Of a stretch of 64,000 nt of DNA, positions 15,423 to 64,000 are shown one piece after another. A program made the translations under genes and the position numbers. The stretch is from a virus (lineage: Duplodnaviria > Caudoviricetes): the IMG/VR virus record IMGVR_UViG_3300021387_000301, positions 3,273-67,272 of that record; one strand, given 5' to 3'. Positions within the stretch are counted from its first letter, which is position 1. Each line of letters starts with the position of its first letter. The notes below the pieces were generated by a model that was given only the letters and a program-made list of their open reading frames with translations, was not told the origin of the DNA and searched no databases.

Positions 15423-16082
15423 TTATATCCAGTCTAAGATGGTAGGACCTTTATACCCTTTCCTCCAGACCCACCAGGCGTAGGCCACGGCGCTGCCGCC
15501 GTGTGCGCGCATATAGCCGAAATCCGCGTTCTTGGCGCACAGCACGCGCTCCACGCATTGCAGGACAAATTGGGGGGGGGGGGGGATAATTTTGAATATC
15601 TCGTTGTAGCGCGCCTTGCCCTCGGCGAAGGTGGTCTTAAGGAACATACATACGTAGCCGCCTTCGGGTACGAGGTCCAAAGCGTGCAGCACGAACGCCT
15701 TGGCATATTTGTACGGAGGGTTCGTGACGATGGAGAAAGCACCCTCGAAAGGCGGCTCGGTCATATCGAAGAAATTGCACCTCTCGCCGTAGCCCCGGTC
15801 GATGAGGTCGTAACTCTTGACATCGTAGCCGCGCTCCGTAAGGCGCTCAGAGAGACACCCCGTGCCGCAGGCAGGCTCCAAGACCTGCTTGTTGATGCTG
15901 ATTTTCTTAAGGAGCAGGTCGATGGCGGCGGGGTCGGTGGCGTAGAAATCATTTTTCTCGCGCTCTTTGTCGGTGTGGTTGCTCGCACCCATAATCTTGA
16001 AGATGCTGTGGAACGAGCCAGTCCAGTCTTTGTCGGTCATAGTGGTTTTGGGATAGAATGACGGCGGCAGCGTATAGGCCAC
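15423..16082 (-). CDS. N6-adenine (amino) DNA methyltransferase
   Basis: SAM-binding LEPACGTG and catalytic NPPY; start may be MTDKDW at 16040. Confidence 0.85.
   Translation of the reverse strand: MAYTLPPSFYPKTTMTDKDWTGSFHSIFKIMGASNHTDKEREKNDFYATDPAAIDLLLKKISINKQVLEPACGTGCLSERLTERGYDVKSYDLIDRGYGERCNFFDMTEPPFEGAFSIVTNPPYKYAKAFVLHALDLVPEGGYVCMFLKTTFAEGKARYNEIFKIIPPPPQFVLQCVERVLCAKNADFGYMRAHGGSAVAYAWWVWRKGYKGPTILDWI
15572..15585 (-). repeat. C14 homopolymer within the MTase coding sequence
   Basis: ATC CCC CCC CCC CCC CAA encodes IPPPPQ; currently in frame. Confidence 0.9.
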
Positions 16083-16100
16083 TGCCGCCGTGGGTTAGTG

Positions 16101-17864
16101 TCAGTGTGTGCTGTTCCAGCTTTGCCAGTTGTTCTCATTGGCACGGTTGCCCCATTTGTCCGTGCCTACGGTGCGAGGACGCCCGCGACCTCGGCCAGTG
16201 GCCACGTTGCCCTTGCGTGCGCGGACCTTGTTGGCTTCATCGTCGTCGCTGCTCTCTTCGGATGTGCCGTTGTTGACATCGGCCTGAGCCTCGATAACAT
16301 TGATCTGTTGCTCGGTCTGGATGTCCGCAAGCTGCTCCTGGGTCTCCACGGTGTTCTCCTGCTGTATGTCGAGGCGCTGCTCTTCGAGAAGGAGTTCCTG
16401 CATCTTCTCGTCGTGCTGCTCTTTCTCGATGCGTTTCCATTCCTGCGGCGTGGAGAAATAGAACTTCTCCGATGCCGTGCGGCGTGAGCAGAACTTGTTC
16501 TGCACGGCCATAGCGAGGTTCGTGGTGACTTCCTGGTCGTTGACGGGCAGGAAAGGAGTTACGTAGAAACTGATGCGGGTGTTGAGGAAATTGAGCCTGT
16601 TCTGGCTTTCTATGCCGTAGCCCCACTTGAAGATGTCGATAACCTTGCGTATAAACTCATCATACTCCTGTGCTTCGAGCATCGCCTTGTTGTAGGAATC
16701 CGAATACAGCAGCTTGATGGCGGCTGCGGGAGTGTCCCCGGATTTGAGTTCCGGGGCCTTGATGACCATCGACTGCGAGTATATCTTGGCTTCCAGCATA
16801 TCGAGCTCCGTCTTGTAGGCGTTGGAGGCATCCTGTCTGTTCAGGAACTCTGCCTTACCCTCGGCGGGTATGATGAATATCTTGGAGGCATAGGACATAT
16901 TCTTCGTGGAGATTTCCTTTATCTGCTTGCCTGAGCCGTAGAGGCCGAGGATAGGCAGGCCGAAATCGTGGTTGTTCTGCGCCAGACGCGAGAAAGCGGC
17001 CTCGCGGTGTTCTATCGTCTCCTGCGAGGGCGACCATACGGGACCGTCGTTGCGGCGGTGGTATGAGAAAGGAGCGTAAGGCCATCCGTGCGGCTCCATA
17101 TATTCAAGGCCGTAGCCGTCCAGGCTGAACTCTTGAAGAATAGGTGTCTTGTCCTCTTCGACGATATTTTCGCCGCCCGACACGAAACGGTAGTAGTATT
17201 TGTCGTCCCATACATCGACATACTGGTGCGTCTCGCCATCATCGCCGAACTCGCTGTAGGTGCGTGCGAGGACCGAGGGCTTGCCCGTGCGGCGGTCGTA
17301 ATGAGGATAGAGGACATCGCCGTTCTCGTAGGAGAAAACCTTCCACTCGAACTTGCCTTTATCCATATAGCCCACGAAGGCGGTGTCGCCCACGGACATA
17401 GAGGCTTTGGCGGCATAGTGCCAGGCGTTCTCCATACGTTTGTCAGCCCACCCCGCCTTGAAATCGGCATAGATGCGCCAGCTCTCTTCCGAATCATCCT
17501 CTTCGGCGAGGTCGAACTGCACATCGTTGCCCGTGAGGCGCGCGAGGCGATCATCGAGGATTTCCTGCTGGTAGGCGAAGGCATAGCGCGGGAAGTCCTC
17601 TTCGTAGTAGAGGCCGTCCTTGCCCTCGCGGTAGTTGATGTAGACGTTCGGGTCGTTGATGGCGTGGCTGCTGGGGTCGAGTTCACGGAGGAAATCGGCC
17701 TGCGTCACCTCGGTGTAAACAACACCATCAGGCATTAGGGGCTTTTCTCCCACATTATGCAACGCTGCGGCATCAGACCTCGGTGAGGCTTCGGGGGAAA
17801 TGCGGTAGAACGGCTTTTTCGTCAGCAGCCCCCGCTTTCTCTTTTTAACGTTTTGTTGTTCCAT
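16101..17864 (-). CDS. portal protein (SPP1-like)
   Basis: 587 aa next to the terminase; DTPAAAIKLLY segment resembles the SPP1-portal SG.A.. motif. Confidence 0.8.
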   Translation of the reverse strand: MEQQNVKKRKRGLLTKKPFYRISPEASPRSDAAALHNVGEKPLMPDGVVYTEVTQADFLRELDPSSHAINDPNVYINYREGKDGLYYEEDFPRYAFAYQQEILDDRLARLTGNDVQFDLAEEDDSEESWRIYADFKAGWADKRMENAWHYAAKASMSVGDTAFVGYMDKGKFEWKVFSYENGDVLYPHYDRRTGKPSVLARTYSEFGDDGETHQYVDVWDDKYYYRFVSGGENIVEEDKTPILQEFSLDGYGLEYMEPHGWPYAPFSYHRRNDGPVWSPSQETIEHREAAFSRLAQNNHDFGLPILGLYGSGKQIKEISTKNMSYASKIFIIPAEGKAEFLNRQDASNAYKTELDMLEAKIYSQSMVIKAPELKSGDTPAAAIKLLYSDSYNKAMLEAQEYDEFIRKVIDIFKWGYGIESQNRLNFLNTRISFYVTPFLPVNDQEVTTNLAMAVQNKFCSRRTASEKFYFSTPQEWKRIEKEQHDEKMQELLLEEQRLDIQQENTVETQEQLADIQTEQQINVIEAQADVNNGTSEESSDDDEANKVRARKGNVATGRGRGRPRTVGTDKWGNRANENNWQSWNSTH

Positions 17865-17930
17865 AATAAAAAGGGTTTATGGTCGTGGGCTACGGGTCTC
17901 GTGACCGTCTGACCTTGGTTAATAAAAAAA

Positions 17931-20681
17931 CTATGCGAAATCGAATGTCCTCACGTTTGCGATATGACTGCCGAGGAAAGAGGGTATCTCGGAATCCTCT
18001 CCCTTGACCTCGAAAATCTCAAACATAAGCAGTGCCTCTATGAAGTCAGGGGAATGGCCTACGAGGCTCTTGTGCTTCATCTGCTCCTTATGGATGAGAC
18101 ACCATCCCCTATCCTGCTTGCTCATATCCTGCCGTATGGCCTTGCGCTCCGTTTGCAGGATGGTGTAGAGGCGCATCGTTGTCTTGCCGATGATGAACTC
18201 CCTGTCGAGCAACGAAGGCTCGACGCTCCACTCCCCCTGCTGCGTATGCTGCGCGAAGGTGTAGGCGCACTGCGACTTGATGTTGTTGTACAGCTTGCGG
18301 TTCTCGTAGTCGGGAGCCTCTTGGTTGTTGAAAGGCACGGCATTGGGGAAAGCGCCTTTGAACACCTGCCCCATACCTTGAAGGTCGTATGTAAAGTTCT
18401 GCTCCAGCACACCCCACTCTTTCAGCTTGGCTTTGATGAGGGGTATCGTGGAGTAAGGATCGCGGCGGCATACGAAAACATCCTGAACGTGGTTGCCCAC
18501 CTTAAACCATGTCACGCAGTTGTCACCGCCGTCGCCTGCCACGTCGCACGAAGCCCTCTTAACCTTGTCGCCCAGCATCGCGGCATTATGGAAACATTTG
18601 TCGAGGTGGAAAGCCTGGATGAGGTCGTTGCCAGTGCGCACGATGTCCCAGTTGCCTTCAAGTTCGCGCGCCCTTATCTCTGGCGGCTGCTGGTAGAGGT
18701 TCTTGATATAGTCCTCATCGAGGGCCATAAGAGCCTTGTTGTCGAGGAGGTCGGCCTTGGTAAAGCGGAAGGACTTGACGAGGAATGTCTCGCGCGTATG
18801 GCCGAACTGCGCGAGGCTCGGCGACCACGCCTCATCCGCGATGTCCTTGATTTGGAGATAGACCTCGCGTGGTGTGTTGCCCCAAATGGTATTCTCCACG
18901 TTATCGTCGGGAGAATAGAAGTAGCGTGTCTTGCCGCTCCTTTCGGGGATGATGAACCCCTTGCGCTCCGGGTGCAGCTTGCCATCGGCGTATATAGTGT
19001 CGGCTTTGCCTATGTACCAGTCGAGGAAACGCCGCAGCCACGACAAAGGATCGGGGTTGCAGGTAAAGAGGATGCGCGACTTGATATTGTTGGTGTTTCG
19101 GTTCACCGTGGTAAGGAACTTGAACATCTTGAACGACATCTGCGGCACCTCGTCTATGCCTATATATGCGAACTGCTGTCCGCGATAGCGGTCGTCGAAA
19201 TCCTGATAGGCCATATCGAAATAGGAGAGACTGAGTTTGGCCCCGGAATGGAAGTACCAGGTCATATCGTCGCTGCTCCTATTGTACTTGCCGAGAGGTT
19301 CGTACCATTTGCGCGTCTCGCCGATGATGTTCTCAAAGTCACCTTTGTTCTTACGGAAAATGATGCCGTTGAAGTATTTGTTCGTGATGTCGGGCAGCGG
19401 CTTTGTCAGCAACATCGCCGTATTATGATTGATAGTGAAGGCATCGGTGAGATACAGGTGCTCGTTGCCAGTGATAGTGATACAGCGGCAGGGAGACTTG
19501 GCTGCATCTTTCCTTATCCACATAATCTTTTTCGTCAGCACCGTCTCATCGTAGCCTTCGGGGCGTTTCGTAGGCAGCTTGCCGTAGATGTGCGCTCTCG
19601 AAATATACATAGCGTTGGCGGTAAAGAACTTGCGGTCGTCGGGGGCTATGAACATAAGCCGCCAGTAACCGACCTTCGTGGGGTCGTCGTTGACCTCGGC
19701 CACGCGCGCCCAGATACCGAGGGAGCGCGCCAGCTGCGCCACCTGCTCCAGCAGTATCTTGTTGGCCATTTCAATGATCGGATGCTTTCTCCACGAACGG
19801 CCGTTGCGTTTCATCATCCCTGCAAGGAAATCCCAGCGGGCTTTCGGCGAGGCGAGCATATATGAGTCGGGGATGGTGGCGAAACCTTTTTTCCAAAGGT
19901 TGTCGTTGAAGATTTCCCTACGTTGTTTCGGTGATATGCCGCGCAGCCTTCTCGACACTCCGTTGTTGTCAACACCTATTTTCAAGCCTCTGCTGCGGGC
20001 TATTATGTTCAGCGTCCTGTCGGTCTTGGGTATTATGATACCGCCCCTATCGGCTTCCCACGTTCCTTGCCCGAGGATATAGCCGAGGAAGAACGGGTCT
20101 ATCGGCAGTTTCTCATCGGGGACGGAATTAAATTCCACCTCCCCGCAGAGAGGTATCTCAAACATGTGGAGGTGTTTGTTGCGGAGGGAATAGGGGTACG
20201 GCTTGTCAAGACGATAGATATCGAAAATCTCGCGCGCCTCCCACAGCCTGAAACGGTCGCTTTCCGTCTCGCGCCCCCAGAACCTATGATTATCCATACA
20301 CTTAAGCGATGAGCCGTCGTCGAAGAACAGCGTGTAGGTTGTCTGCTCTCCCTGCTCGAAGATGGCCGACACCTGCTGTATGCCTTCGTATGGCGTACAG
20401 ATATAGTCGCCCACCTCCAACTCGCCCATCCTGCGGAAACCGCTGGGTGTGGCTACGAGGGTGTTGTATGTGTTGGCCTTGCCCCCACCACGGTTGCCTC
20501 CTGTGCCATCGACATCGGCACAAGAGTGCTGTACGTGTTCCTGCGCCCCTTTCTGCGAAATGAAAGTCCTTGACGCTACTTTCTTTTTTCTTTTCTCTTC
20601 TTCTACAGAGCGCAGTTCCTCTACACTCTGCTGCGCATAGACGTTCCTTCCGTCTGCTGCGTGTAATATAATGTTGCCCAT
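17931..20681 (-). CDS. terL: terminase large subunit with intein
   Basis: Walker A GGNRGGGK|T split by the intein, Walker B YIGIDE, TCNP coupling motif, RNase H-like CDVAGDG and PDFIEAL. Confidence 0.92.
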   Translation of the reverse strand: MGNIILHAADGRNVYAQQSVEELRSVEEEKRKKKVASRTFISQKGAQEHVQHSCADVDGTGGNRGGGKANTYNTLVATPSGFRRMGELEVGDYICTPYEGIQQVSAIFEQGEQTTYTLFFDDGSSLKCMDNHRFWGRETESDRFRLWEAREIFDIYRLDKPYPYSLRNKHLHMFEIPLCGEVEFNSVPDEKLPIDPFFLGYILGQGTWEADRGGIIIPKTDRTLNIIARSRGLKIGVDNNGVSRRLRGISPKQRREIFNDNLWKKGFATIPDSYMLASPKARWDFLAGMMKRNGRSWRKHPIIEMANKILLEQVAQLARSLGIWARVAEVNDDPTKVGYWRLMFIAPDDRKFFTANAMYISRAHIYGKLPTKRPEGYDETVLTKKIMWIRKDAAKSPCRCITITGNEHLYLTDAFTINHNTAMLLTKPLPDITNKYFNGIIFRKNKGDFENIIGETRKWYEPLGKYNRSSDDMTWYFHSGAKLSLSYFDMAYQDFDDRYRGQQFAYIGIDEVPQMSFKMFKFLTTVNRNTNNIKSRILFTCNPDPLSWLRRFLDWYIGKADTIYADGKLHPERKGFIIPERSGKTRYFYSPDDNVENTIWGNTPREVYLQIKDIADEAWSPSLAQFGHTRETFLVKSFRFTKADLLDNKALMALDEDYIKNLYQQPPEIRARELEGNWDIVRTGNDLIQAFHLDKCFHNAAMLGDKVKRASCDVAGDGGDNCVTWFKVGNHVQDVFVCRRDPYSTIPLIKAKLKEWGVLEQNFTYDLQGMGQVFKGAFPNAVPFNNQEAPDYENRKLYNNIKSQCAYTFAQHTQQGEWSVEPSLLDREFIIGKTTMRLYTILQTERKAIRQDMSKQDRGWCLIHKEQMKHKSLVGHSPDFIEALLMFEIFEVKGEDSEIPSFLGSHIANVRTFDFA
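19422..20477 (-). mobile_element. intein (352 aa, Ala1) with degenerate LAGLIDADG-type endonuclease
   Basis: A-NTYNTLVATPSGFRRMGELEVGD N-terminus, block B NHRFW, block F CRCITI, C-terminal HN|T. Confidence 0.88.
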
Positions 20682-20709
20682 AATTCAGTAATTTCTTTAC
20701 TTTCAAGCG

Positions 20710-20811
20710 CAAAAATAGGTAATTACAAGGGTTTTACGGGGATTTTTAGTTAGAATGTGAAAAATTCTAACAAAATAAATCCACAATAATTAAAAATGGT
20801 GTATATCTTTG
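20710..20811. promoter_or_regulatory. divergent promoters for the packaging and capsid operons
   Basis: TATTTTTG on minus (20710-20717) and TATCTTTG on plus (20804-20811). Confidence 0.65.
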
Positions 20812-20873
20812 CGAAAATATTTTACAAATCTTGCAGAAAAACTGCAAACAACCCACTTCAAAAAAACATCACT

Positions 20874-21665: not shown

Positions 21666-21710
21666 GCCCCGCCCCACTCAACCCGATTCTTAACTCTAAC
21701 ACGTCCCACT

Positions 21711-22337: not shown

Positions 22338-22353
22338 AGAAAGGAGGTAAACT

Positions 22354-25995: not shown

Positions 25996-26538
25996 ATGTC
26001 AAGCAGCGAACCGAAAATCAAGCAGCCGACGGCCGAGGCGCAGCGCACCTACGCCTCCATACGTGACAACGATGCTTCCGTGGTCACTATCCTCGGCACT
26101 AAGAAAACCTACAAGATACGATGGCTAAAGAATGGGCAGGTAGACAGGCTCTCCCGTCTGCTCATCCGCAAGGGCGACACCGACAACGAGGATGTCGATG
26201 GCACGGACCCTTTGGATGCCATTATGGAGGATTCCAAGATAGCCTGCAAGGCTGCTGCCATCATCATCCTTGACGGCTACTGGAAACTGAAATTCCGCTA
26301 TTGGTTTCTTTGGCGCTGGTTCTACTATATCAGGCAGTACGACAACGTGCAGCTACAGCCGATACTCGACGAGGGCAAAAAAAAAATTCCGCTCACGCAG
26401 TTCTTAATGACTACCATGTCCTTGACCGAGGCAAGGGCTACGCTGATGAACATGAGAACGGAAGAAGCCGAGCATATCCTTCAAGAACTCGCTTCGGCGC
26501 AGCAGGAGGAGACGGAAAAGCCCGACAGTGGCTCTTGA
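25996..26538 (+). CDS. tail assembly chaperone (G-like)
   Basis: Between tail tube and tape measure; contains an A10 slippery run. Confidence 0.65.
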   Translation: MSSSEPKIKQPTAEAQRTYASIRDNDASVVTILGTKKTYKIRWLKNGQVDRLSRLLIRKGDTDNEDVDGTDPLDAIMEDSKIACKAAAIIILDGYWKLKFRYWFLWRWFYYIRQYDNVQLQPILDEGKKKIPLTQFLMTTMSLTEARATLMNMRTEEAEHILQELASAQQEETEKPDSGS

Positions 26539-26822
26539 TGCCGCGCGACTATTTCTGCGGCCTTGTCCGTATCCCTCTGTATGACTACTATTGGGGCCTT
26601 ACGGCCGCGCAGGTTGAACTGCTCTCCGTTGACCAGCCTATCGTAGTTTGGAAGAAGGAGAAGGAGAAAGAGAAACCATGGAAGGACGGCAAGGTCGAGG
26701 AAGGCTATGCCGAGCGCCAGTATCGCAAATGGCTGGAGAAAAAGAAACAGCGCGAGAAGAGCGGCAAGAAGATCAATTTCATGGAATACCTCCAAAAAGA
26801 GGTCAAGAAAAACAAGGAATAA
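26538..26822 (+). CDS. second tail chaperone ORF (T-like, possibly reached by -1 frameshift)
   Basis: The -1 frame is open from 26301; TGATG overlap. Confidence 0.55.
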   Translation: MPRDYFCGLVRIPLYDYYWGLTAAQVELLSVDQPIVVWKKEKEKEKPWKDGKVEEGYAERQYRKWLEKKKQREKSGKKINFMEYLQKEVKKNKE

Positions 26823-34467: not shown

Positions 34468-34567
34468 CGGGGGCAAAGTTATATTATTTGCATAATCTAA
34501 CCAAAAAAAAAGCAGAAAATCATAACATTAGCTTTTTATTTCTAACTTTGCGAAAAGTTTTTACAGT

Positions 34568-51210: not shown

Positions 51211-52479
51211 TTAGTTTTGGGAATCCGTGGTCTGCGAAGATCGCGGATTTTCTTTGTACCTACCCTCAAACTTGTTAAGGAACTCCACTACCCTATAGAT
51301 GGCGGCATCTATCTTCCGTTGGTCGTGCGAGATATAGCGCGACGTTACCTGCTTGCCTGATGCCCAAGCGTGGCCGAGGCATTTTCCTATCGTGCTTTCC
51401 GATATATCGAGGTCATTGGCCGCTACGCTTGCAAAGGTATATCTCGCGCTGTAGGAGGTTATACAGGGGAAAATAGGGCTTCTCTCTATCTTGCGCAGCT
51501 TGCCCAGCTTGTCGGGAACCAAGCGTGACGGCCCTATCTTCTTCAAGGCCGCGTTCCAATGCTGCATAAAAGTGTGATAGTCCTTCATATTATCCATAAT
51601 ATTCAGCAGATAATTCTCGCCCTTGTACTTGTTGATGATAGCCATAGCCTCCGGGCAGACTGGCAGGCTAATCTTGCGTGATTTCGTGGAGTTCGCCTTG
51701 TCCGTTTTCCTGCGCACGAACACGAAACGCCCTTTCTCCAGACCCTTGCACAGCAGCATATCACCTACATTGACGCCTGCGAGGTATGTGGAAAGGCAGA
51801 ACATATCTATGTATATCTGCTGCCACGGCTCGCAGGGATAGTCGCGCAGATCAGCGAACTCCTGCGCCGAGAGAGCGTTGGGTATCGTTTCTTCCTCATG
51901 AATCTTGTACCCGTCACGCCCCCGGAAAGGATAGTTGTCCGTCAAACCCTGCTCCCTGCACCAGTTGAAAACGGTGCGGATGCAGCGCATTTTCTGCGCG
52001 ATTCCGTTCACTGAAAGACCCCGTTTTTCCCTAAGCCAAACTTCTAATTTACTCAGCCAAGGCTCGCGGGTTGAATCAAGGCACGCTGTCGGGTCGAACT
52101 CGCGCACGCGGTCGCTGGTGTTCCTATATAGAACAGCCGTGCTTTTCTTCAATCCTTCGGCGTATTTCGCGCAGTAGTAAGCAAGAGTGTCGGTCTCGCA
52201 GACGTCGCGCTCCACGCCGTCTATATCTGCTTTTATACTATCTTTCAACTCGTTAAGGGTCACATTGGGTTTTCTGCAACATATACGATCCAGCCTGTCA
52301 ACTATCCATGCGAGCTGCTTTGTTTTGAGCATCTGCTGCTGGCTGACAATGCTGCTTTCTGATGTAAAACCAGTGGCGATTAACATTTTTTTACCGCCAT
52401 TGAGAAGGCGTATCTTTATAGGGTATGAACCGTCCGCCAGAGGGCGTCTTGTATCTATAAAAAGGTCGTATTTTGTCAT
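51211..52479 (-). CDS. int: tyrosine integrase (Bacteroidota type)
   Basis: Arm-binding N-terminus DGSYPIKIR; RKT, YSAR, LGH and catalytic Y in VTSRY. Confidence 0.9.
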   Translation of the reverse strand: MTKYDLFIDTRRPLADGSYPIKIRLLNGGKKMLIATGFTSESSIVSQQQMLKTKQLAWIVDRLDRICCRKPNVTLNELKDSIKADIDGVERDVCETDTLAYYCAKYAEGLKKSTAVLYRNTSDRVREFDPTACLDSTREPWLSKLEVWLREKRGLSVNGIAQKMRCIRTVFNWCREQGLTDNYPFRGRDGYKIHEEETIPNALSAQEFADLRDYPCEPWQQIYIDMFCLSTYLAGVNVGDMLLCKGLEKGRFVFVRRKTDKANSTKSRKISLPVCPEAMAIINKYKGENYLLNIMDNMKDYHTFMQHWNAALKKIGPSRLVPDKLGKLRKIERSPIFPCITSYSARYTFASVAANDLDISESTIGKCLGHAWASGKQVTSRYISHDQRKIDAAIYRVVEFLNKFEGRYKENPRSSQTTDSQN

Positions 52480-52491: not shown

Positions 52492-52835
52492 TTTTTTGCA
52501 CCAATTTTGCACGCTCATTTCTAAGTTGCTAATTTTGGTAGTTTTACCACGGAAAAATTTGCACCAAATTTGCACCGCTTGCTCAAAATTTGCACAAAAG
52601 CAGCCCAAAAAAGCCTAAAAAAACCCATTTCGAACACTTTTTTTTTAAGACCAAAGTGCTGGAAATGGGGAAAAATTCTCCTGTAAATACTTGACATACA
52701 GGATTTAATAAGTGAGCGATAGACGGGACTCGAACCCGCGACCCTCGGCTTGGGAAGAGGATATTCGCATATTTAACTGCTTGATTATCAGTTATTTGCG
52801 AAGGCCGTTTCATAAATTTGCACCGTTTTTGCATT
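52492..52835. repeat. integrase arm-type site candidates (TTTGCACC)
   Basis: TTTGCAC(C) near 52495, 52506, 52558, 52569, 52589 and 52817, flanking the core. Confidence 0.6.
52714..52757 (-). other. attP core, 3' half of tRNA-Gly(CCC)
   Basis: Minus strand CTTCCCAAGCCGAGGGTCGCGGGTTCGAGTCCCGTCTATCGCTC: anticodon loop CCC, T-arm and acceptor strand, no 5' half. Confidence 0.85.
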
Positions 52836-52872: not shown

Positions 52873-53511
52873 TCACACCCTGAGCAAACCGACAACTTTG
52901 TATATTCCGAAAATATCTGACTTCGGAATTAGGAAGTCGGGGTACTCTTCATGGTTGTAGGACACGCACCTGATTTGATTGCCTTCGTCATACAGCCTTT
53001 TGAGTACCGTACCCTCTCTGGCCTCGACGAGGTAGGTCTTGCCCCACTCGACCATACTACTTACTTTCTTGCAGGCGATCTCGTCACCGCCTTCAAACTT
53101 AGGTTCCATTGAGTTGCCCTGCACGATGATTGTAAAGTCATATTCAGGGAAACTCTTCACTACTGGCTGGAATGAGCACTCGGACATCCTCACGCCATGC
53201 ACATACTCTTGGATGGGGCCTGCGGCAGCGGTAATAGGCAGGCGCGGCTTGATGCTGCGGGTTGCCTCTTCATCCTCTTTCCTGCCGTAGTCGCCCTCTC
53301 CAAATTCAAGCCATTCGTAGGGCACATCGAAAGTGTCGCACACCTTCCTGATGTCTGCCAAAGTCCACGGCTGCTTGCCTCGGACTTTCTTCGACAAGTT
53401 GCTCGGAGAGATACCAACCTTCTTGCCGAACGTGGTGAGAGAGATAGACTTCTCAAAAATGAGCTGTTTAATCCTCTCGGCGATTCCTCTTTGGTCAGTT
53501 AGCTGTTTCAT
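52873..53511 (-). CDS. CI-like repressor (HTH + S24 peptidase)
   Basis: HTH N-terminus, GNSMEP catalytic Ser, VLKRL Lys, AG cleavage dipeptide. Confidence 0.9.
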   Translation of the reverse strand: MKQLTDQRGIAERIKQLIFEKSISLTTFGKKVGISPSNLSKKVRGKQPWTLADIRKVCDTFDVPYEWLEFGEGDYGRKEDEEATRSIKPRLPITAAAGPIQEYVHGVRMSECSFQPVVKSFPEYDFTIIVQGNSMEPKFEGGDEIACKKVSSMVEWGKTYLVEAREGTVLKRLYDEGNQIRCVSYNHEEYPDFLIPKSDIFGIYKVVGLLRV

Positions 53512-56868: not shown

Positions 56869-56871
56869 GCT

Positions 56872-57792: not shown

Positions 57793-58223
57793 AACTGAGA
57801 GTTGTCAATACGGCTACGGGCTTTGTCCCCGAAACCGATACGGACTATGAGGCCAAGAAGAAGCTGAAACGCGGTGCGGTTTACGAGATCACTATCAAGG
57901 AATGCCGCAACCCAAAGTTCCATCGCCTCTATTTCAGCCTAATCAGTATCGGCTGGGAGTTTTTGAATGAGCAGCAGCAGGCTTTCTTCCGCAATGACAT
58001 CGAAACATTCCGAAAGACAGTCGAGATAGCGGCAGGGCATTATGAGCCAGTCTATTCAATCTCCCGCAGGACGTGGCTTGAAATCCCCAAGTCCATAGCC
58101 TTTGACAAACTCAGCGAGAGCGATTTCCACGACCTTTACGAGAACGTAAAAAGGGTTATCTCCCAAGTCTTCGTCCCAGAGGACGGCAGAGAAGCCTTCG
58201 AATACGAAATAAAGAATTTCTAA
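57789..58223 (+). CDS. DUF1367 / NinB-like protein
   Basis: RNPKFHRLYF and PKSIAFDK. Confidence 0.7.
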   Translation: MKLRVVNTATGFVPETDTDYEAKKKLKRGAVYEITIKECRNPKFHRLYFSLISIGWEFLNEQQQAFFRNDIETFRKTVEIAAGHYEPVYSISRRTWLEIPKSIAFDKLSESDFHDLYENVKRVISQVFVPEDGREAFEYEIKNF

Positions 58224-58249
58224 CACAATCCCATCCAATTCAAACACTT

Positions 58250-58702
58250 ATGAGTGACATTGTAGTTTCGGGCGTCATAGCCCAGGCTCTTCCCGTTCAG
58301 TCGGGCACAAGCCAGCGCGGCAACCAATGGATGCGCGCATCGTATATCATCGAGCACGAACAAGGCCAGTACCCCAAGCGTATGGTCTTTGACGTAATCA
58401 ACGCCAAGATTCAGGAACTCAACCTGCAAGTCGGCGAGAACGTCACCGTGCATCTTAACGTCGATTGCCGCGAGTACCCGCAAGGCTCTGGCAGGTTCTT
58501 CAACTCCATCGAGGCTTGGAAGGTTGAGCGCAGTCAGGCGCTTGGTGCCCAGCCCCAGACACAGCGCGCCCCTCAGCAGCCTATGCAGCCCCAGCAGCGC
58601 GTAGCACCTCAGCAGCCGACATTCCCTCAGTATGCCGCTGCCCCTCAGCAGCCCCAACAGCCCCAGCAGCCACCCACAAACGATAGCGATTTGCCATTCT
58701 GA
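58250..58702 (+). CDS. ssb: single-stranded DNA-binding protein (DUF3127 type)
   Basis: OB-fold body, Gln/Pro linker, DSDLPF tail. Confidence 0.8.
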   Translation: MSDIVVSGVIAQALPVQSGTSQRGNQWMRASYIIEHEQGQYPKRMVFDVINAKIQELNLQVGENVTVHLNVDCREYPQGSGRFFNSIEAWKVERSQALGAQPQTQRAPQQPMQPQQRVAPQQPTFPQYAAAPQQPQQPQQPPTNDSDLPF

Positions 58703-58778
58703 TTCTTTTTGTTTGTTGTTTGTTGTGTCCCCTGCGTGCAGGTCTATCCTGTGCGTGGGGGAACTTTTTTAAGACACT

Positions 58779-59024
58779 ATGGAAAAAAACGATAGTAAGC
58801 TATTTGATGAAGGTAATATTCTTGTGCCGCGAAAGTTGATAAACGACACAAGACTAAGCGACAAGGCAAGGTTTATCTATTGCTATATAGTCGCAAGAAA
58901 AGAGACTTGCATACCCGATACTGCCAAGTTATCAAAGGAACTTGGGTACTCCAGGCGAACCTTACTGAAATACCTCCACGAACTCGCCGCTCATGACTGG
59001 ATTGAACTATTGCGCCATGATTAG
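58779..59024 (+). CDS. small winged-HTH protein
   Basis: LSDKARFIY...LSKELGYSRRT. Confidence 0.65.
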   Translation: MEKNDSKLFDEGNILVPRKLINDTRLSDKARFIYCYIVARKETCIPDTAKLSKELGYSRRTLLKYLHELAAHDWIELLRHD

Positions 59025-59880
59025 AATCCTCCGAGAAAAGAACACTGACTATACGGTAATCAGCAACACCATCCTGCGAGACGCCTCGGTAAGCCTGAAA
59101 GCCAAAGGGCTGATGGCATTGGTAATGTCGCTCCCCGAAAATTGGGATTTCTCCATCAACGGAGTTCTCTCCATAGCCAAGGAGAAAAGAGATTGCATAT
59201 ACTCCATTATCTCCGAACTGAAAGAGAAAGGCTACTGCAAAATGGAAACCATTCGTGATGAGAACGGCAAGATAGCTGGCACCGATTATATCTTCATGGA
59301 ACAACCGATGGAAGTGCCGCAAAGCCAGTCTGCAAGCGATATCTTACCATATACGGAAAAGCCGTATACGGAAAAACCGTATACGGAAAAACCGACACAA
59401 TCAATTAAAGAATTAATAAATTACTTAAATAAATCAAGTAAAGAAAAAAAAGAAATAGAAAAATATAAAAAAGAAAAAGAAAGTTCAGACATGTTATTTG
59501 ATGCCGACTTAGAAACAAGCGAAAAAGCCGAGCAAACAACTCCTGCTAATCCTGCCAACTCTACAACGAAAAACAAGCCCACGATAAATTCGCTTGATCT
59601 CTCTGCAATCCCAGATGAGTTTCTTCCTATTGTCGAAGATTGGTTGTCTTACAAAAAAGAGCGCCACCAAACATACAAGCCGCGAGGTTTTGAAGCATTC
59701 TTCAAGCGGCTGCTTAAACTGAGCGGCAACAACCCAGGGAAAGCAAAGGAGATAGTTGAGCAATCCATTGCCAACAACTATGCTGGCATCTTCCCGATTA
59801 AATCAAGCAAGAGCAACCTTCCTGTAGGTTTCATCCTGCACGAAGAAAACTTAGACCCCGACAAGAAAGCTGAATGGTGA
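59017..59880 (+). CDS. replication initiator (HTH)
   Basis: YTVISNTILRD..LSLKAKGL N-terminus; internal iterons. Confidence 0.8.
   Translation: MIRILREKNTDYTVISNTILRDASVSLKAKGLMALVMSLPENWDFSINGVLSIAKEKRDCIYSIISELKEKGYCKMETIRDENGKIAGTDYIFMEQPMEVPQSQSASDILPYTEKPYTEKPYTEKPTQSIKELINYLNKSSKEKKEIEKYKKEKESSDMLFDADLETSEKAEQTTPANPANSTTKNKPTINSLDLSAIPDEFLPIVEDWLSYKKERHQTYKPRGFEAFFKRLLKLSGNNPGKAKEIVEQSIANNYAGIFPIKSSKSNLPVGFILHEENLDPDKKAEW
59351..59395 (+). repeat. three 15-bp iterons (putative origin)
   Basis: ATACGGAAAA(G/A)CCG(T/A) x3, followed by an A/T-rich tract at 59400-59480. Confidence 0.75.
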
Positions 59881-59881
59881 T

Positions 59882-60466
59882 ATGTTTGACATACGAGATA
59901 TTGCTGAAAAACGCGAGATAATGCAAATAGCGCTCCCCGATGCTCAGAAAGTCCTGCGTAGCGGGATGGAATATTTCATCGGCCCGCATTTCCAATGGCT
60001 CCCCTCCTACGAGAAAGTAGCACGATGGCTGGCAGATAATCAAAAACGCGGCCTAATGCTTTCGGGTGGCAACGGAGTAGGCAAGACGGTGTTCTGCACC
60101 AAAGTCCTTCCGCTGATATTCCGATACTATCTCCACATTGAGGATGTCACAATCATAGATGCCAAATATCTCGGCGACTATTATAAGAACCCCTCCGACT
60201 ACTACAAGATCGTCTATGACAAAAACCCGATCATCATCGACGATGTTGGTGTTGAGGATATCGCCAATGACTATGGCGAGCGCCGCGACATATTTTCCGA
60301 GATAGTTGATGATGCGGAGAAACGCGCAAGACTGATAGTATTTACCACCAACCTATACGCCGACGATATCAAGACCCGCTACGGAATGAGAACCCTTGAC
60401 AGGCTCTACTCCATAGTGCGGTCGATATGTATCGAAGGCCAAAGCATGAGGCTGAAAACGATTTAG
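59882..60466 (+). CDS. DnaC/IstB-like AAA+ helicase loader
   Basis: GGNGVGKT, IIIDDVG, FTTNL, RTLDRL. Confidence 0.8.
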   Translation: MFDIRDIAEKREIMQIALPDAQKVLRSGMEYFIGPHFQWLPSYEKVARWLADNQKRGLMLSGGNGVGKTVFCTKVLPLIFRYYLHIEDVTIIDAKYLGDYYKNPSDYYKIVYDKNPIIIDDVGVEDIANDYGERRDIFSEIVDDAEKRARLIVFTTNLYADDIKTRYGMRTLDRLYSIVRSICIEGQSMRLKTI

Positions 60467-60490
60467 CCTCGCAAGAAACAACGACAAACA

Positions 60491-62575
60491 ATGAACACTG
60501 ACGAAATACGCAAATGGCACCACGTATTCAAGCGCCCCGGAGAACTCTTTGAGATACGCCTGCTGGGCGATAGGACGTGGAGCGGATATTTCTACGATGT
60601 CGAGGATGCCATCGAGCAGTTGCAGCCTTATGACAACCTCAACATCTACTTCACGGTCAACGAGGTCAAGAGCGCCTGCGACAGCCGTTCTCAGTTCGAC
60701 TGCTTCCGACAAGTCAAAGGCACGGCGACGAGCAAGCAGGACATCGAGCATCGTTGGTGGTTGCCTATAGATGTCGATTGTGAGCGGCCGAGCGGCGTCA
60801 GCTCTACCGATGCCGAGAAACAACTGGCGCACGCCAAGGCTGGCGATGTCTTCCGTTTCCTTAAAGCGAACAATTTTCCTGAGCCTGTCGTCTGCGACTC
60901 ATCGAGCGGCTATCACATCTACCTCCCAATAGACATCGGTAACACCCCGGAGGCTGAGGCGGCGGTAAAGCTGTTCCTTGAAACCCTTGGCAACATCTTC
61001 ACCGATGAACACGTCAAGATAGACAACGTGCTCTTCGATGCCAACCGCATCATACGCCTGCCTGGTACTTACGGCAGGAAAGGCAGGAGCACCGAGGACC
61101 GCCCGCACCGTTTGGCCAAGATACTCTCGGTGCCTACTGAGATAGTTAGGGCAGACCTTGCCGCCCTCGATGCTTTCAACAGCCGCTACAAAATCACGGC
61201 AGAGCCAGTCAAGCACCAAAGCTACGGCGGCGGTACTTTCGACATAAGGACTTTCATCCGCGACCACGGCATAGGTGTTGACAAGGAAATTCCTCTTGTA
61301 GGAGGCGGCACCAAGTTCATACTCTCCGAGTGCATCTTCGACTCCGGGCATAAGGCTCCCGATGCTGCCATCTTCGAAATGCCGAACGGCGCGATAGCAT
61401 ACAAATGCTTTCATCAGTCTTGCTCTTCGTATAGCTGGCAGGATGTGCGCAGAAGATTTGAGCCAGACGCCTATAATCGGGAATATCGTGAAATTAGGCC
61501 GAGAAACCCTCTCTCACAGCCTTTCTCCCCTCAGCCTAAGCAACCCACCGCTCCACCTGTAATCGAAGCTGAGAGCGAAGAAAAAGGGCCGATATGGCTT
61601 TCGATGTCCGACATCCAAAAAGTAGACATCGAATCCATGGAGCACGTCAAGACTGGCTATACGGAGTTGGATGAGAAAATCAAAGGACTGTTCATGGGCG
61701 AGGTCACGCTCATATCGGGAAATAACTCATCGGGTAAGTCCACGTTTCTGAATAACCTCATCCTGAACATCATCGATCAAGGTTGGAAGGTGGCCCTTTG
61801 GTCGGGCGAGCTTCTCGACATCAAGCTGAAACGCTGGCTGACGATGCTGGCGGCAGGCAGGAAACACACGTTCACCTCCCCGAAAGGCTACAACTATGTT
61901 CCCGATGATCTTGCAAAGGTAATCGACGAATGGCTGAATGGAAAACTCTTCATCTACAACAACAAGTACGGCAATAGATGGGAGCAAGTCCTGACACAAC
62001 TTAACAAGCTGGTCGAGCAGGGCGTGCGGATATTCTTCCTCGACAACCTTATGGCGATGAACATAAACATCTTCGAGGGAGACAAGAACGAGCGCCAAAA
62101 GCTGTTTGTAAGCCAGCTGACCGATTTTGCCAAGGACAACAATGCTTCCATCGGCCTCGTTGCTCATCCGAGAAAAGCCTCGACGCTCATACGCAAGGTA
62201 GACATCAGCGGCACCTCCGATATTACGAACCTCATCGACAATCTCTTCCTCATCCATCGCAACAACGAGGATTTCAAGAGAGAGGGCAAGGAATATTTCG
62301 GTGCTCCGCTGATGGGTTACATAGCCTCCAAGAACTACGGCAATATTTTGGAGGTGGCCAAAAACCGCTTGGAGGGTGTTCAAGACCTGCTGGTAGGTAT
62401 GTACTACGAGCCAGTCAGCCACCGTATGATGAACGCCCCCGATGAGGAAAAGGAATACGGATGTTTCCGCACCGGGGAGCAGACCTCGATGTTCACTGAG
62501 ACCGCCGAGCAGCAACCTCCCCAGGTGTTCGACCCATTCAGCGCCCCACAGTCCACTGAGGACTGCCCTTTCTGA
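60491..62575 (+). CDS. AEP primase fused to SF4 (DnaB/Twinkle-like) helicase
   Basis: IDVDC and SGYHIY primase motifs; SGNNSSGKST, LDNL, VAHPRK, DISGTSD. Confidence 0.85.
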   Translation: MNTDEIRKWHHVFKRPGELFEIRLLGDRTWSGYFYDVEDAIEQLQPYDNLNIYFTVNEVKSACDSRSQFDCFRQVKGTATSKQDIEHRWWLPIDVDCERPSGVSSTDAEKQLAHAKAGDVFRFLKANNFPEPVVCDSSSGYHIYLPIDIGNTPEAEAAVKLFLETLGNIFTDEHVKIDNVLFDANRIIRLPGTYGRKGRSTEDRPHRLAKILSVPTEIVRADLAALDAFNSRYKITAEPVKHQSYGGGTFDIRTFIRDHGIGVDKEIPLVGGGTKFILSECIFDSGHKAPDAAIFEMPNGAIAYKCFHQSCSSYSWQDVRRRFEPDAYNREYREIRPRNPLSQPFSPQPKQPTAPPVIEAESEEKGPIWLSMSDIQKVDIESMEHVKTGYTELDEKIKGLFMGEVTLISGNNSSGKSTFLNNLILNIIDQGWKVALWSGELLDIKLKRWLTMLAAGRKHTFTSPKGYNYVPDDLAKVIDEWLNGKLFIYNNKYGNRWEQVLTQLNKLVEQGVRIFFLDNLMAMNINIFEGDKNERQKLFVSQLTDFAKDNNASIGLVAHPRKASTLIRKVDISGTSDITNLIDNLFLIHRNNEDFKREGKEYFGAPLMGYIASKNYGNILEVAKNRLEGVQDLLVGMYYEPVSHRMMNAPDEEKEYGCFRTGEQTSMFTETAEQQPPQVFDPFSAPQSTEDCPF

Positions 62576-62601
62576 TAACTTAAAAACAACAATTTGATAT
62601 A

Positions 62602-62836
62602 TTATTCTTGTAATGTCGCCGTAGTTCTTATCCTTAACATCGGGGAATAAAGCATTATGTGCAATGACGGCAGGTTGCTTATCCAACGGGGTCTCGGGCG
62701 TTTCGGGATCGTACTCTGCCCACCCTACAAGTTCAAAGTCAAAAGAGGGGTTTAATGCTTTCAACCTGCGCATCGCCAACCCCTGCGACTCATAGCCGCT
62801 GCATAGCGTTGCAAGTCTTATCTTATTGTTTTCCAT
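62602..62836 (-). CDS. dcm: 5' part of C5 cytosine MTase (motifs I-III), in inverted orientation
   Basis: MENNKIRLATLCSGYESQ...WAEYD...NYGDITRI. Confidence 0.85.
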
Positions 62837-62878
62837 AAGTTTTCAACCATTTATTTAGAGGTTCCATTACAAGAATAA
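62602..62878. mobile_element. invertible segment bounded by 14-bp inverted repeats
   Basis: TTATTCTTGTAATG (62602-62615) and CATTACAAGAATAA (62865-62878). Confidence 0.8.
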
Positions 62879-63438
62879 ACTGGCCTGACTTCCCCGATTG
62901 TGACCTGCTTTTTTACTCGACCCCTTGTCAGAGTGTGTCCCAAGCTGGCCTTCAACACGGCTTTGCAGAGGGCAGCGGAACGCGGTCGAGCATCATTTGG
63001 AACGTCCGCGATGCGGTCATTGCCAAGCGACCCAAGTTCCTATGCCTGGAGAATGTCCGTGCTATGGTTTCGGCCAAGTTCGTCGGTATGTTCAACCTTT
63101 GGCAGCGGGAGTTGGAACGGCTCGGCTATACCAACTACGCTGAAATCCTTAACGCCAAGGATTTCGGTGTTCCGCAAAACCGAGAACGCATCTTCCTTGT
63201 CAGTGTTCGCAACGATGTGGGGCTGAGATACCATTTCCCTAAGCCGTTCAAGCTGACCAAATGCCTTGCCGACATCTTGGAAGAGAATGTCGATGAGAAG
63301 TTCTTCCTGCGCGATGAAATGCTTGCGAGGTTCTGCGAGAAAAGCCTCGAAGAAGAAATCGTTCCGGGAATAGATATAGGAGTCCTTGAAAACGAACGCG
63401 AGGATGGTGATGAATCATTCTTTGGAAACGCCTACTGA
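62865..63438 (+). CDS. dcm: 3' part of C5 cytosine MTase (motifs IV-VIII)
   Basis: ITRINWPDFPDCDLLFYSTPCQ, ENV, QNRERIF; no start codon before the catalytic PC in the current orientation. Confidence 0.85.
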
Positions 63439-63691
63439 GGTTATCATCCTTGGCAGACTTAGCACCTCTCAGGATGCTATAGTCGTCGGAGGGGGGGGGT
63501 ATCGCCATGCCACACCGCAGGACACGGAAATACGCCCAAGGTGGCCGTTATCACGGATTAAGCCGCATAACGTGTGCTATGGCTGTGTTGCCTGCACCTT
63601 GAACACCCGCTACGAGGATGCTGCCATCAAGGACTATATCACGCTAAGGCACTACCCGAAGACAGTCGTAATGGCCATCTATGAAACATAG
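63404..63691 (+). CDS. MTase-associated variable module(s) with G9 tract
   Basis: VVGGGG at G9 (63491-63499); the alternative frame reads VSPCHTAGHGNTPKV. Confidence 0.55.
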   Translation: MVMNHSLETPTEVIILGRLSTSQDAIVVGGGGYRHATPQDTEIRPRWPLSRIKPHNVCYGCVACTLNTRYEDAAIKDYITLRHYPKTVVMAIYET

Positions 63692-63884
63692 TAACGTCAC
63701 ACTAAACATACCGCAGGCTACGGCATTGGGGTACATCCCCTGCCCCGTATGGGGCTGTTTCGATTGGAATTACCCCTCTTCCAAGCTGCGGCGCGGCCGC
63801 GTACAGGGGGGGGGTAAAATTACTCCTGCCCTGACTGGCAACGCCACCACTATCATTGCAATAACAGCCGATGAGACCGATTAA
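63681..63884 (+). CDS. MTase-associated variable module with G9 tract
   Basis: QATALGY...YPSSKLRRGRVQGGGKITPALT, a module seen in phage C5 MTases. Confidence 0.65.
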   Translation: MKHSNVTLNIPQATALGYIPCPVWGCFDWNYPSSKLRRGRVQGGGKITPALTGNATTIIAITADETD

Positions 63885-64000
63885 GGACAAGTCAAGCATC
63901 ATAGGGTTCTATATCAAGCCCAATAGGGCGCATCCGAACAAAGGTGTAGTCTATGATGAGAGATATATCTCCCCCTGTATGACCGCAGGAATGGGGGGGG
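63871..64000 (+). CDS. MTase-associated module, truncated by the window end
   Basis: MRPIKD...ISPCMTAGMGG ending in a run of at least 8 G. Confidence 0.55.
   Translation, partial: MRPIKDKSSIIGFYIKPNRAHPNKGVVYDERYISPCMTAGMGG

Follow-up and report, generated by a model that had tools for sequence, protein, structure and literature searches.

In bacteria, bet-hedging through phase-variable methyltransferases has been studied extensively, and in the two-polypeptide C5 methyltransferases M.AquI and M.EcoHK31I separately translated core parts assemble. The phasevarions of host-adapted bacteria involve Type I (hsdM/hsdS) and Type III (mod) methyltransferases switched by SSRs (PMC5909438, PMC7383803), and Campylobacter jejuni cj0031 is a poly-G-switched Type IIG enzyme (PMC4889913). 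The name "epigenetic invertons" has been given to hsdS specificity loci that invert in Type I R-M systems (PMC7672463), and partial intergenic and intragenic invertons have been described in gut bacteria (Chanin et al., PMC10028968), in a text in which the word "methyltransferase" does not occur. Among phages, poly-G phase variation affects the receptor-binding proteins of Campylobacter Fletchervirus (Sorensen et al. 2021, Cell Rep, as cited in PMC11959909, where this case, the only one for a phage in the literature consulted, is termed "exceptional"). Multispecific C5 methyltransferases are encoded by the Bacillus phages SPR, phi3T, rho11s and H2 (Trautner et al. 1996, EMBO J, PMC450048, as cited in PMC12707154).

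The phage described here has two methyltransferase systems, a small NPPY amino-methyltransferase and a C5 (cytosine) methyltransferase. As in the phasevarions and cj0031, a repeat tract lies inside a DNA-methyltransferase ORF, where random changes of length are predicted to turn methylation on and off. Unlike those systems, which reside on bacterial chromosomes and belong to Types I, III and IIG, the genes are phage-borne; they specify a C5 methylase, whose separate recognition modules carry several of the tracts, and an orphan NPPY methylase. Phasevarions control a regulon, a role that for the phage switches is at most a possibility. In common with the hsdS and gut-bacterial invertons, the locus contains a segment flanked by short inverted repeats, and flipping it alters what is encoded; since one arm is non-coding and the other coding, the "partial intergenic" class fits. 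While the hsdS flip swaps specificity domains, here a C5 catalytic subunit loses its start codon along with motifs I-III, an on/off effect, and in contrast to both bacterial groups the inverton is phage-borne and has no adjacent invertase gene. Like M.AquI and M.EcoHK31I, the C5 enzyme has a core whose parts are translated separately, but those two enzymes have two parts only and neither free target-recognition domain (TRD) peptides nor switches.

With Fletchervirus the resemblance is that the phage's own genes, and not those of its host, bear hypermutable poly-G tracts, which create phenotypic diversity there and would do so here. The target there is a tail or receptor-binding protein and here the DNA-modification machinery; the host group also differs, and an inversion switch is added to the tracts. 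With the SPR/phi3T enzymes the C5 system shares a phage-encoded single core with several tandem TRDs between motifs VIII and IX, and presumably also a role in acting against restriction. It departs from these single polypeptides in that each TRD is its own shifted-frame cistron, homopolymer switches sit on the TRDs, and the core comes in two parts, alpha and beta. At most, then, the C5 system would work as a multispecific enzyme, outside the single-chain architecture of SPR/phi3T. What is new is that all of these switches lie within one phage, together with a slippery adenine-methylase family; our literature search found no paper on phase-variable phage methylases.

Genome context and distribution of G/C runs

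The window, that is, the whole 64,000-nucleotide stretch of DNA analysed, comes from an uncultured temperate phage whose host is probably a rumen or gut Prevotella. A Pfam search identified two temperate-phage genes on the contig, encoding an integrase and a cI-like repressor. The phage contig is approximately 74% complete, with about 26% of the genome missing, and the 67-kb record stops within the C5 methyltransferase locus. The anatomy of both loci could be read directly (Table 1).

Table 1. Coordinates of the methyltransferase loci, their putative switches and the integrase within the window
Feature	Position	Strand	Remarks
NPPY amino-methyltransferase	15423..16040	-	205 aa from ATG; 219 aa from upstream GTG at 16082
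C14 tract (G14 on + strand)	15572..15585	-	encodes PPPP within I-I-P-P-P-P-Q
Tyrosine integrase	51211..52479	-	Pfam SAM_5 domain; PHROG 1 integrase, 6.6e-19
Left inverted-repeat arm	62602..62615		TTATTCTTGTAATG; in spacer after primase-helicase gene (60491-62575)
Invertible segment, 249 bp	62616..62864	-	C5 methyltransferase 5' exon, pointing away from gene body (OFF); 28-nt leader, ATG at 62836, codons 1-74 with motifs I-III (to 62616)
Right inverted-repeat arm	62865..62878		doubles as I-T-R-I codons of conserved GDITKI motif
C5 methyltransferase alpha body	62865..63438	+	motifs IV-VIII and start of variable region; stop 63436-63438
TRD mini-gene M1	63404..63691	+	ATG 63404 or 63410; overlaps alpha end
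G9 tract in M1	63491..63499	+	at Gly-Gly site of TRD-A
TRD mini-gene M2	63681..63884	+	67 aa; in frame (ON)
G9 tract in M2	63806..63814	+	RVQ-GGG-KITP
TRD mini-gene M3	63871..64000	+	leaves contig within G8+ tract
G8+ tract in M3	63993..64000	+	end of contig

Just four runs of G or C of at least 6 nt occur in the whole window (G14, G9, G9 and G8+, lengths which come from a metagenome assembly, as do those of the relatives, and may contain some error), all of them inside the two methyltransferase loci, against about 17 expected under a first-order model. The initial annotation had noticed no comparable runs in other genes, and none was found anywhere else in the 64 kb. This concentration is far beyond chance. 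GGG, at 9%, is the least used glycine codon. Among 160 related C5 loci, 94 runs of at least 8 nt lie in 262 kb of methyltransferase region, whereas 850 kb of flanking sequence contains 14, which makes a 22-fold excess; for the adenine-methyltransferase family (140 non-identical loci) the excess is 6.3-fold, and the runs fall at several recurrent sites. The proposal that both loci carry a hypermutable feature is borne out by the related phages, between which tract length, reading frame and orientation all differ. The same pairing of methyltransferases was also sought in related phages, as the initial annotation had suggested, but did not turn up a second time; the adenine methyltransferase is missing from G001-G005, which are mostly fragments.

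The NPPY amino-methyltransferase and its C14 tract

The ORF (15423-16082, minus strand) is intact, its frame currently ON, and has as neighbours the portal gene (16101-17864, minus strand) and a 288-aa head-module gene (14554-15420, minus strand). Its product contains the motif EPACGTG about 50 aa ahead of NPPY, that is, motif I before motif IV, and matches PHROG 799 "DNA methyltransferase" (4.4e-56); a Pfam search gave no match. The AF2 model (pLDDT 83) has a class-I SAM fold, and its best DNA-methyltransferase fold match, a moderate one, is M.TaqI (TM 0.53, rmsd 4.4-4.6). On the strength of NPPY, the motif order and the M.TaqI match the enzyme is probably a gamma-class N6-adenine methyltransferase; alternatively it may be specific for N4-cytosine. 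A database protein of 205 aa, P0001, is identical to it.

The C14 tract attributed to this gene is indeed present, inside the intact ORF, at a conserved Pro-Pro site approximately 45 aa past NPPY. The model places the encoded stretch in a loop with a helix on one side and a strand on the other. When the tract is changed in silico to C13 or C15, the last 50 or so residues of the protein are replaced. Tracts at the same codon position in orthologs measure C8 (L001) and C9 (L002), compared with C14 in the window; both relatives share the portal-methyltransferase-288-aa gene order, and the portals are 52-79% identical. Furthermore, four distinct natural proteins (P0108, P0115, P0117 and P0119) are +1C alleles, frameshifted exactly after the prolines, with tails that correspond to the conserved downstream sequence read in the +1C frame. 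The same tails result when one C is inserted into L001 in silico.

The C5 methyltransferase and its invertible segment

For the cytosine methyltransferase the initial annotation had postulated an invertible segment, and we found perfect 14-bp inverted repeats there which bracket the segment exactly. At up to 2 mismatches no further copy of the repeat exists in the window (0.31 expected). In the present orientation the alpha body has no start codon of its own. It matches Pfam PF00145 (positions 51-219, 1.9e-37), and C5 methyltransferase motifs I-VIII, including the PCQ catalytic motif, are all accounted for, with motif I on the inverted exon. Flipping the segment in silico yields a 264-aa ORF reading ...NYGD-ITRI-NWPDF....

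A homologous repeat pair occurs in nine loci, the window included. The segment is direct, or ON, in six (L081, L163, L178, L162, L324 and L326) and inverted, or OFF, in three (the window, L082 and L325), the two orientations being known from comparison between strains; in every case the limits of the segment are exactly the repeats. The repeat arms, one coding and the other non-coding, co-vary between lineages (TTATTCTTG... versus TTATCTTTG...) while matching perfectly within each genome. Four more protein clusters hold body-only gene calls which start directly after the repeat. A serine recombinase was found neither in the contig nor in G001-G005. The tyrosine integrase is the sole recombinase seen in the contig and, though not adjacent to the switch, is a candidate for the inversion enzyme; the complete relative G003 encodes three tyrosine recombinases, none adjacent or tied to the switch.

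Recognition modules

The initial annotation reported three G-runs in the modules which follow the cytosine methyltransferase. Their positions hold, but the modules do not share a single reading frame: the runs sit in separate overlapping mini-genes of about 45-65 codons with one TRD each. These are chained in tandem after alpha, each read in a different frame from its own ATG to its own stop, and successive modules are offset by +1 across a stereotyped junction.

M1 at G9 encodes the first half of TRD-A and then passes into the frame of TRD-B, which has lost its own ATG; at G10 or G7 in silico it specifies a complete TRD-A of 49-50 aa. Homologs of TRD-A are found in L093 (4785-5015) and the first module of L173, and those of TRD-B in L081 (4536-4715) and L093 (4322-4528). 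M2 begins with an ATG situated within the stop region of M1 (...IYET), where the sequence is TATGAAAC. M2 is 53-59% identical to a TRD within the intact single-chain enzymes L089 (579 aa, to whose TRD it aligns), L092 and L101, and is truncated in silico by G8 or G10. An M3-like TRD is present in L084. The G run at the contig end sits where homologous TRDs carry Gly-Gly, and contig L167 likewise stops at a G8 run.

L162 has a regular chain of eight mini-genes plus beta with ATG starts and overlaps of 1-56 nt, most commonly 11 nt. Both L162 and L084 are tract-free alleles. Any further mini-genes and the beta part (motifs IX-X) are absent from the 67-kb, 74%-complete record, which ends within the locus and lacks the C-terminal half of the C5 enzyme. 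Relatives carry these motifs on a separate ORF (L081, 5801-6349; L163, 6342-6917) which matches PF00145 in the motif IX-X part only and in which no TRD is evident by eye.

The mini-genes are under strong purifying selection: M1, M3 and M8, each analysed in the frame it uses, give dN/dS values of 0.03-0.07, as does alpha. Tract polymorphism can be seen directly among natural relatives. Orthologous tracts of L081, L163 and L082 read C8/C10/C10 and G9/G8/G8, with reading frames that change to match, and one tract of L163 is replaced by GGTGGCGG. In the L105-L109 lineage the tract is G8, G9 or G10; G8 gives an intact 628-aa ORF, which G9 splits.

Proposed mechanism

We consider it likely that this phage has two methyltransferase systems with heritable stochastic DNA switches built into both. 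With slippery runs or a flip-switch on each, the phage would probably vary the marking of its own DNA. The poly-C tract of the NPPY methyltransferase would gain and lose bases via slipped-strand mispairing; lengths of 3n+2 (here 14) would keep the frame, and others would replace the C-terminal quarter and turn the enzyme off. The C5 enzyme would be made in pieces, namely alpha (motifs I-VIII), the overlapping TRD mini-genes, and beta (motifs IX-X, seen in relatives only). A 249-bp flip between the 14-bp repeats would be its master on/off switch, OFF here, and G (or C) tracts in individual TRD mini-genes would allow single specificities to be switched independently. Since each G run lies in its own TRD mini-gene, the runs most likely switch individual specificities and not the whole cytosine enzyme; in the record TRD-A is off and M2 on. 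Within one lineage, slippage and inversion would occur at a high rate, and the TRD peptides would work in trans with alpha and beta, a mode of action for which a literature search found no published precedent. The benefit would presumably be a mixed methylome which hedges between restriction of unmethylated and of methylated DNA. As the phage is temperate (integrase, cI-like repressor), a phasevarion in lysogens is possible.

A hierarchical combinatorial switchboard, composed of the inverton, per-TRD tract switches on trans-acting peptides and an independently slipping adenine methylase, is a more tentative proposal, to which we would give somewhat less than even weight. Under it the inverton would set the cytosine-methylase core on or off, free TRD peptides of 5-8 kDa would plug into the alpha/beta core in trans, one tract would toggle between TRD-A (at G10) and TRD-B (at G9), and the adenine methylase would be expressed with the head genes.

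Alternative explanations

Long homopolymers cause transcriptional slippage. RNA-polymerase slippage at G9/C14, or ribosomal frameshifting at the TATGAAAC junctions, might recode the products in any genotype, so that the length of the DNA tract would hardly count and a single multispecific polypeptide would contain all the modules. Such homopolymer-driven slippage is already established (compare PMC6260861), the stereotyped +1 step from module to module would suit it, and in the single-chain relatives L089 and L105 the same modules are fused through an in-frame Met. Against this, every junction retains a start codon for the new frame, mostly ATG and occasionally TTG or GTG, the upstream frame of L083 continues up to 18 codons beyond the ATG, which makes a stop-dependent shift unlikely, and we recognised no known slippery motif at the junctions. 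The DNA tract lengths do differ between relatives, and recoding, which leaves the inverton unexplained, appears improbable. The state of the record itself, with alpha off, TRD-A out of frame and TRD-B deprived of its ATG, might alternatively be that of unneeded methylase genes disrupted by mutation at hot spots and by a single inversion event, and by our judgement about one in two tract-bearing modules of relatives is out of frame. Yet the mini-genes are strongly conserved by selection, out-of-frame alleles are otherwise intact downstream, the tracts are kept across 25-40% sequence divergence using the rarest Gly codon, and the inverted exon retains a full 74-codon ORF, including motif I, between two perfect arms; decay without function is, in our opinion, quite unlikely.

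The data throughout are metagenome assemblies, and G runs evidently trouble assemblers, since the window contig and L167 both end inside such runs. It is nevertheless hardly credible that the homopolymers were miscalled and the 249-bp segment mis-joined at a short repeat. Independent assemblies from different samples show the tracts again at orthologous codon positions, 60 kb of other genes lack them, and even the run at the contig end falls at the Gly-Gly position of homologous TRDs. The 14-bp repeat is shorter than the usual assembly k-mers, its arms co-vary between lineages, and the flipped segment is exactly repeat-bounded in three unrelated assemblies.

Implications

If phages randomly vary their own methylation through stochastic DNA switches, as we favour, then host range and escape from restriction would be properties of a population and not of a genome sequence, methylome-based assignment of phages to hosts would be unreliable, and lysogens may inherit a phage-driven epigenetic switch. 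Should the switchboard be true, many different methylomes would coexist within a single lysate, and the specificity subunits of C5 methyltransferases could be detachable, comparable to HsdS in Type I systems. The per-TRD switches offer a natural test system for whether C5 specificity domains can act as separate subunits, which, if true, would be useful for methylase engineering. Exact-pattern scans for same-species variants found none; the other contig with identical proteins (P0001, P0187) apparently has the same switch states as the window.

Genome setting and G/C runs

The source record is a linear IMG/VR virus entry of 67,272 bp (74% complete by CheckV), of which the window takes bases 3273–67272 and so reaches the contig end. 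An integrase, a cI/LexA-like repressor, a portal and a tape-measure-sized ORF of 2152 aa identify a temperate tailed phage (see table). The closest metagenome matches bear sample names of rumen or gut type, proteins identical to those of the window are also encoded by a 92.6-kb contig, and a C5 methylase 75% identical to ours (database protein P0126) is named as from a Prevotella sp. MAG. BLASTN gave no match to the C5 locus among GenBank phages, and exact-pattern scans of IMG/VR minus near-identical records gave neither a same-species copy with other tract lengths nor the missing 3' end. The contig carries no further PF00145, PF01555 or PF02086 methylase.

Features of the window discussed in the text
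Feature	Position	Strand	Remark
Adenine-type methylase ORF	15423–16082	-	EPACGTG then NPPY, gamma-class order
G14 run	15572–15585		adenine-type methylase
Portal	16101–17864	-	
First ORF of A10 overlap	25996–26538		
Second ORF of A10 overlap	26301–26822		offset -1
A10 run	26377–26386		
A9 run	34503–34511		apparently intergenic
Tyrosine integrase	51211–52479	-	
T9 run	52638–52646		apparently intergenic
cI/LexA-like repressor	52873–53511	-	
Primase-helicase	60491–62575		
C5 methylase codons 1–74	from 62836		runs leftward; motif I, LCSGYES...
Remaining C5 alpha	from 62865		runs rightward; PCQ motif to motif VIII
Mini-gene M1	start 63404 or 63410		
G9 run	63491–63499		C5 locus
Mini-gene M2	63681–63884		
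G9 run	63806–63814		C5 locus
Mini-gene M3	from 63871		
G8 run	63993–64000		C5 locus, contig end

The initial annotation had noticed no comparable C/G runs in other genes, and a homopolymer scan bears this out: only four G/C runs of at least 6 nt occur in the 64 kb, all in the two methylase loci. A first-order model of the window sequence predicts about 17 such runs, and about one of at least 8 nt. Runs of 6 or 7 nt number zero in the 64 kb against some 15 expected, so far below the model that short G/C runs appear to be avoided genome-wide, and slippery G/C runs seem to have been purged from the genome outside the four tracts. In long ORFs, 9% of glycine codons are GGG. Across 160 C5 loci, the density of runs of at least 8 nt is 22-fold higher within the methylase region than in its flanks, and 85 of the 94 in C5 methylase regions are G on the coding strand.

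Adenine-type methylase

The adenine-type methylase, 205 aa long from its likely start at the ATG at 16040 and identical in sequence to P0001 of the database, matches PHROG 799 "DNA methyltransferase" [4.4e-56] and no Pfam family. Its AlphaFold model (30 homologues, mean pLDDT 83) has a class-I SAM fold, the best match among DNA methylases being M.TaqI (TM 0.53). In this model the four prolines specified by the C14 tract lie in a loop joining a helix and a strand, and Pro-Pro at this position is conserved among the homologues.

That the tract is hypermutable, as had been claimed, agrees with its behaviour among relatives. Loci L001 and L002, whose portals are 52% and 79% identical to that of the window, share with it the gene order portal, methylase, 288-aa protein and carry, at exactly the C14 position, in-frame tracts of C8 and C9 respectively. 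Four distinct natural proteins from this clade (P0108, P0115, P0117 and P0119) are normal through Y-P-P-P and then continue into an altered tail of the QGF.../RGFAV...MRQKRGL type. Lengthening the L001 tract in silico by a single C yields this tail, and we therefore regard the four proteins as recent +1C OFF (out-of-frame) alleles whose genes are intact in other respects. A change to C13 or C15 in the window itself would exchange the final ~50 residues of the methylase for others.

The wider NPPY family is predicted to be likewise slippery. A G/C run of at least 7 nt lies within the gene in 37 of 160 loci, at sites which recur yet differ (query positions ~58, 99, 108–112, 165 and 183–193), and runs are 6.3-fold denser than in the flanks. 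Genome contigs scanned with the adenine-type methylase yielded relatives of at most 60% identity, mostly in Clostridia MAGs, with neither a close clade nor a host call. A second instance of its pairing with the C5 system was not seen: the gene is absent from the five related genome records (G001–G005), which are mostly fragments. In two other phages (L087:5933–6511 and L177:3569–4147) a homologue 44–46% identical is found ~1.4 kb downstream of a split C5 methylase; the NPPY and C5 families thus also travel as neighbours.

Invertible start of the C5 methylase

The alpha part of the C5 methylase (motifs I–VIII) is divided between two opposite directions, its rightward piece matching PF00145 (1.9e-37). 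A 249-bp segment is bracketed by perfect 14-bp inverted repeats, of which the window holds no further copies. When the segment is flipped in silico, an ORF of 264 aa results in which the family motif GD-ITRI-NW spans the joint, preceded by an A-rich 28-nt leader; related alpha proteins measure 264–270 aa. Since the body has no start codon in its present state, alpha is OFF in the window. A homologous repeat pair stands at the equivalent place in eight other loci, the segment being direct (ON) in L081, L326, L324, L163, L178 and L162 and inverted (OFF) in L082 and L325, as in the window. The invertible segment attributed to the cytosine MTase is thus repeat-bounded and occurs in both orientations among nine loci. 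By the classification of Chanin et al. (PMC10028968) it is a partial intergenic inverton.

The repeat arms read TTATTCTTGTAATG in the window and TTATCTTTGTAATGT in the L081 group, and within each genome the non-coding upstream arm equals the coding arm (AGA-Arg in the window, AAG-Lys in the L081 group), reflecting either compensatory change or homogenisation by recombination. The more distant L161, L164 and L083–L085 lack the repeat, and all have the segment direct. Four more protein clusters, seen as proteins alone, comprise gene calls starting just past the repeat (MPDFDLL...), which is what an OFF locus would yield.

In L163 an extra N6_N4 methylase (L163:3219–4259; PF01555, 1.5e-56) lies between the primase-helicase and C5 alpha genes, the upstream repeat arm falling after it. 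In two related C5 loci (L175:4101–5000 and L187:1–570) the alpha gene carries, in place of the inverton, a long in-frame insertion that interrupts it shortly ahead of the ITKI/PCQ region and has LAGLIDADG-like motifs (intein or homing endonuclease).

No serine recombinase (Resolvase family) was found in the contig or in the five related records, one of them a complete 105.8-kb genome; the PF00589 scan missed the window's own tyrosine integrase. The complete record, G003 (105,850 bp), is that of L325 with its inverton OFF, and encodes three tyrosine recombinases of 412, 401 and 342 aa, which exceed the needs of integration alone.

TRD mini-genes

Downstream of alpha, which ends with motif VIII and ~70 residues, the frame shifts repeatedly, and comparison with relatives reveals a regular design. 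There follows a row of ORFs of 45–65 codons, mostly with ATG-A(A/G)A starts within the ...V-Y-E-T-x-stop of the preceding ORF (TATGAAAC encodes Y-E-T for the preceding ORF and M-K for the following one). The row closes with the beta ORF (165–191 aa; motifs IX–X, PF00145 positions 270–321), a part absent from our record. In L162, where no tract is long, eight mini-genes and beta overlap by 1–56 nt (most commonly 11 nt); the count of mini-genes in L163 is nine. M2 of the window is 53–59% identical to the stretch between motifs VIII and IX in intact single-chain enzymes, for example the L089 ORF of 579 aa; judged by sequence, the mini-genes are TRDs. No TRD was seen by eye in the beta ORF of L081, L162 or L163, so the TRDs must reach the core another way. 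Presumably they act in trans as separate peptides, the conserved start codons arguing for their separateness.

Tracts lie inside single mini-genes, G runs on Gly-Gly sites and C runs on Pro-Pro sites. Module 2 has C8 in L081 (out of frame) and C10 in L163 and L082 (in frame); module 3 has G9 in L081 (in frame) and G8 in L163 and L082 (out of frame). At a third site L081 has G8, L161 has G9 and L163 has the stable GGTGGCGG. In a separate lineage the 628-aa enzyme is intact with G8 and split with G9. With its G9, M1 of the window encodes the N-terminal half of TRD-A followed by a complete TRD-B, the ATG of which has been lost (ATC); G10 or G7 would give full TRD-A, ending ...VITD. M2 is in frame with G9. 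M3 leaves the contig within its own tract, and L167 likewise terminates at a G8 run. Of the proposal that three G-runs in the modules after the C5 MTase are hypermutable, the variability stands, orthologous tracts differing in length; the modules themselves proved to be separate ORFs.

Mechanism and alternatives

We consider true DNA-level phase variation by two mechanisms, slippage and inversion, the best explanation and a probable one. It would operate at three levels: by slippage in the tract of the adenine-type methylase, by inversion at the alpha start, and again by slippage within individual TRD mini-genes.

Artefact, decay and recoding at the RNA or ribosome level were weighed against it. 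The G8 at the contig end might be a poly-G artefact of two-colour chemistry; this is rejected given its position on the expected TRD Gly-Gly site. A view of the mini-ORFs as relics left by a broken single-chain enzyme is rejected on dN/dS, which is 0.03–0.07 for three mini-genes, each in its own frame, and the same for alpha (the set leaves out L081 module M4, which by reading starts at TTG); such strong purifying selection indicates that the mini-genes are translated and are not debris. Ribosomal +1 frameshifting at the Y-E-T/M-K overlap was set aside because the new frame keeps its ATG and, in L083, upstream frames run on. That tracts are conserved, mini-genes under selection, OFF alleles intact and flips bounded by repeats is more than any one of these alternatives explains.

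By varying its methylation the phage may be hedging between systems that restrict unmethylated DNA and Type IV systems that restrict methylated DNA, which would fit established knowledge of both; effects of the switches on lysogen gene expression are equally a possibility.

Nearest in mechanism are the phasevarions of bacteria, the invertons of Type I hsdS loci and the Type IIG enzyme of C. jejuni with its poly-G tract (PMC5909438, PMC7672463, PMC4889913). Closest in function are the multispecific C5 enzymes of Bacillus phages, which are however single chains. Among phages, poly-G phase variation is described in the receptor-binding proteins of Campylobacter phages, and termed exceptional (PMC11959909). 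Neither phase-variable phage methylases nor stand-alone C5 TRD genes came up in full-text searches or in reviews. New here are the presence of all the switches together in one phage, the census of an alpha-start inverton with co-varying arms, and the homopolymer enrichment, with natural OFF alleles, of the unrelated NPPY methylase family itself.

Other homopolymers

The A10 run lies where two ORFs overlap directly upstream of the tape-measure-sized ORF, and shifting by -1 there would fuse them into a product of 275 aa. It resembles the programmed frameshift usual for tail assembly chaperones rather than a phase switch. Of the A9 and T9 runs, the latter is situated between the integrase and repressor genes.
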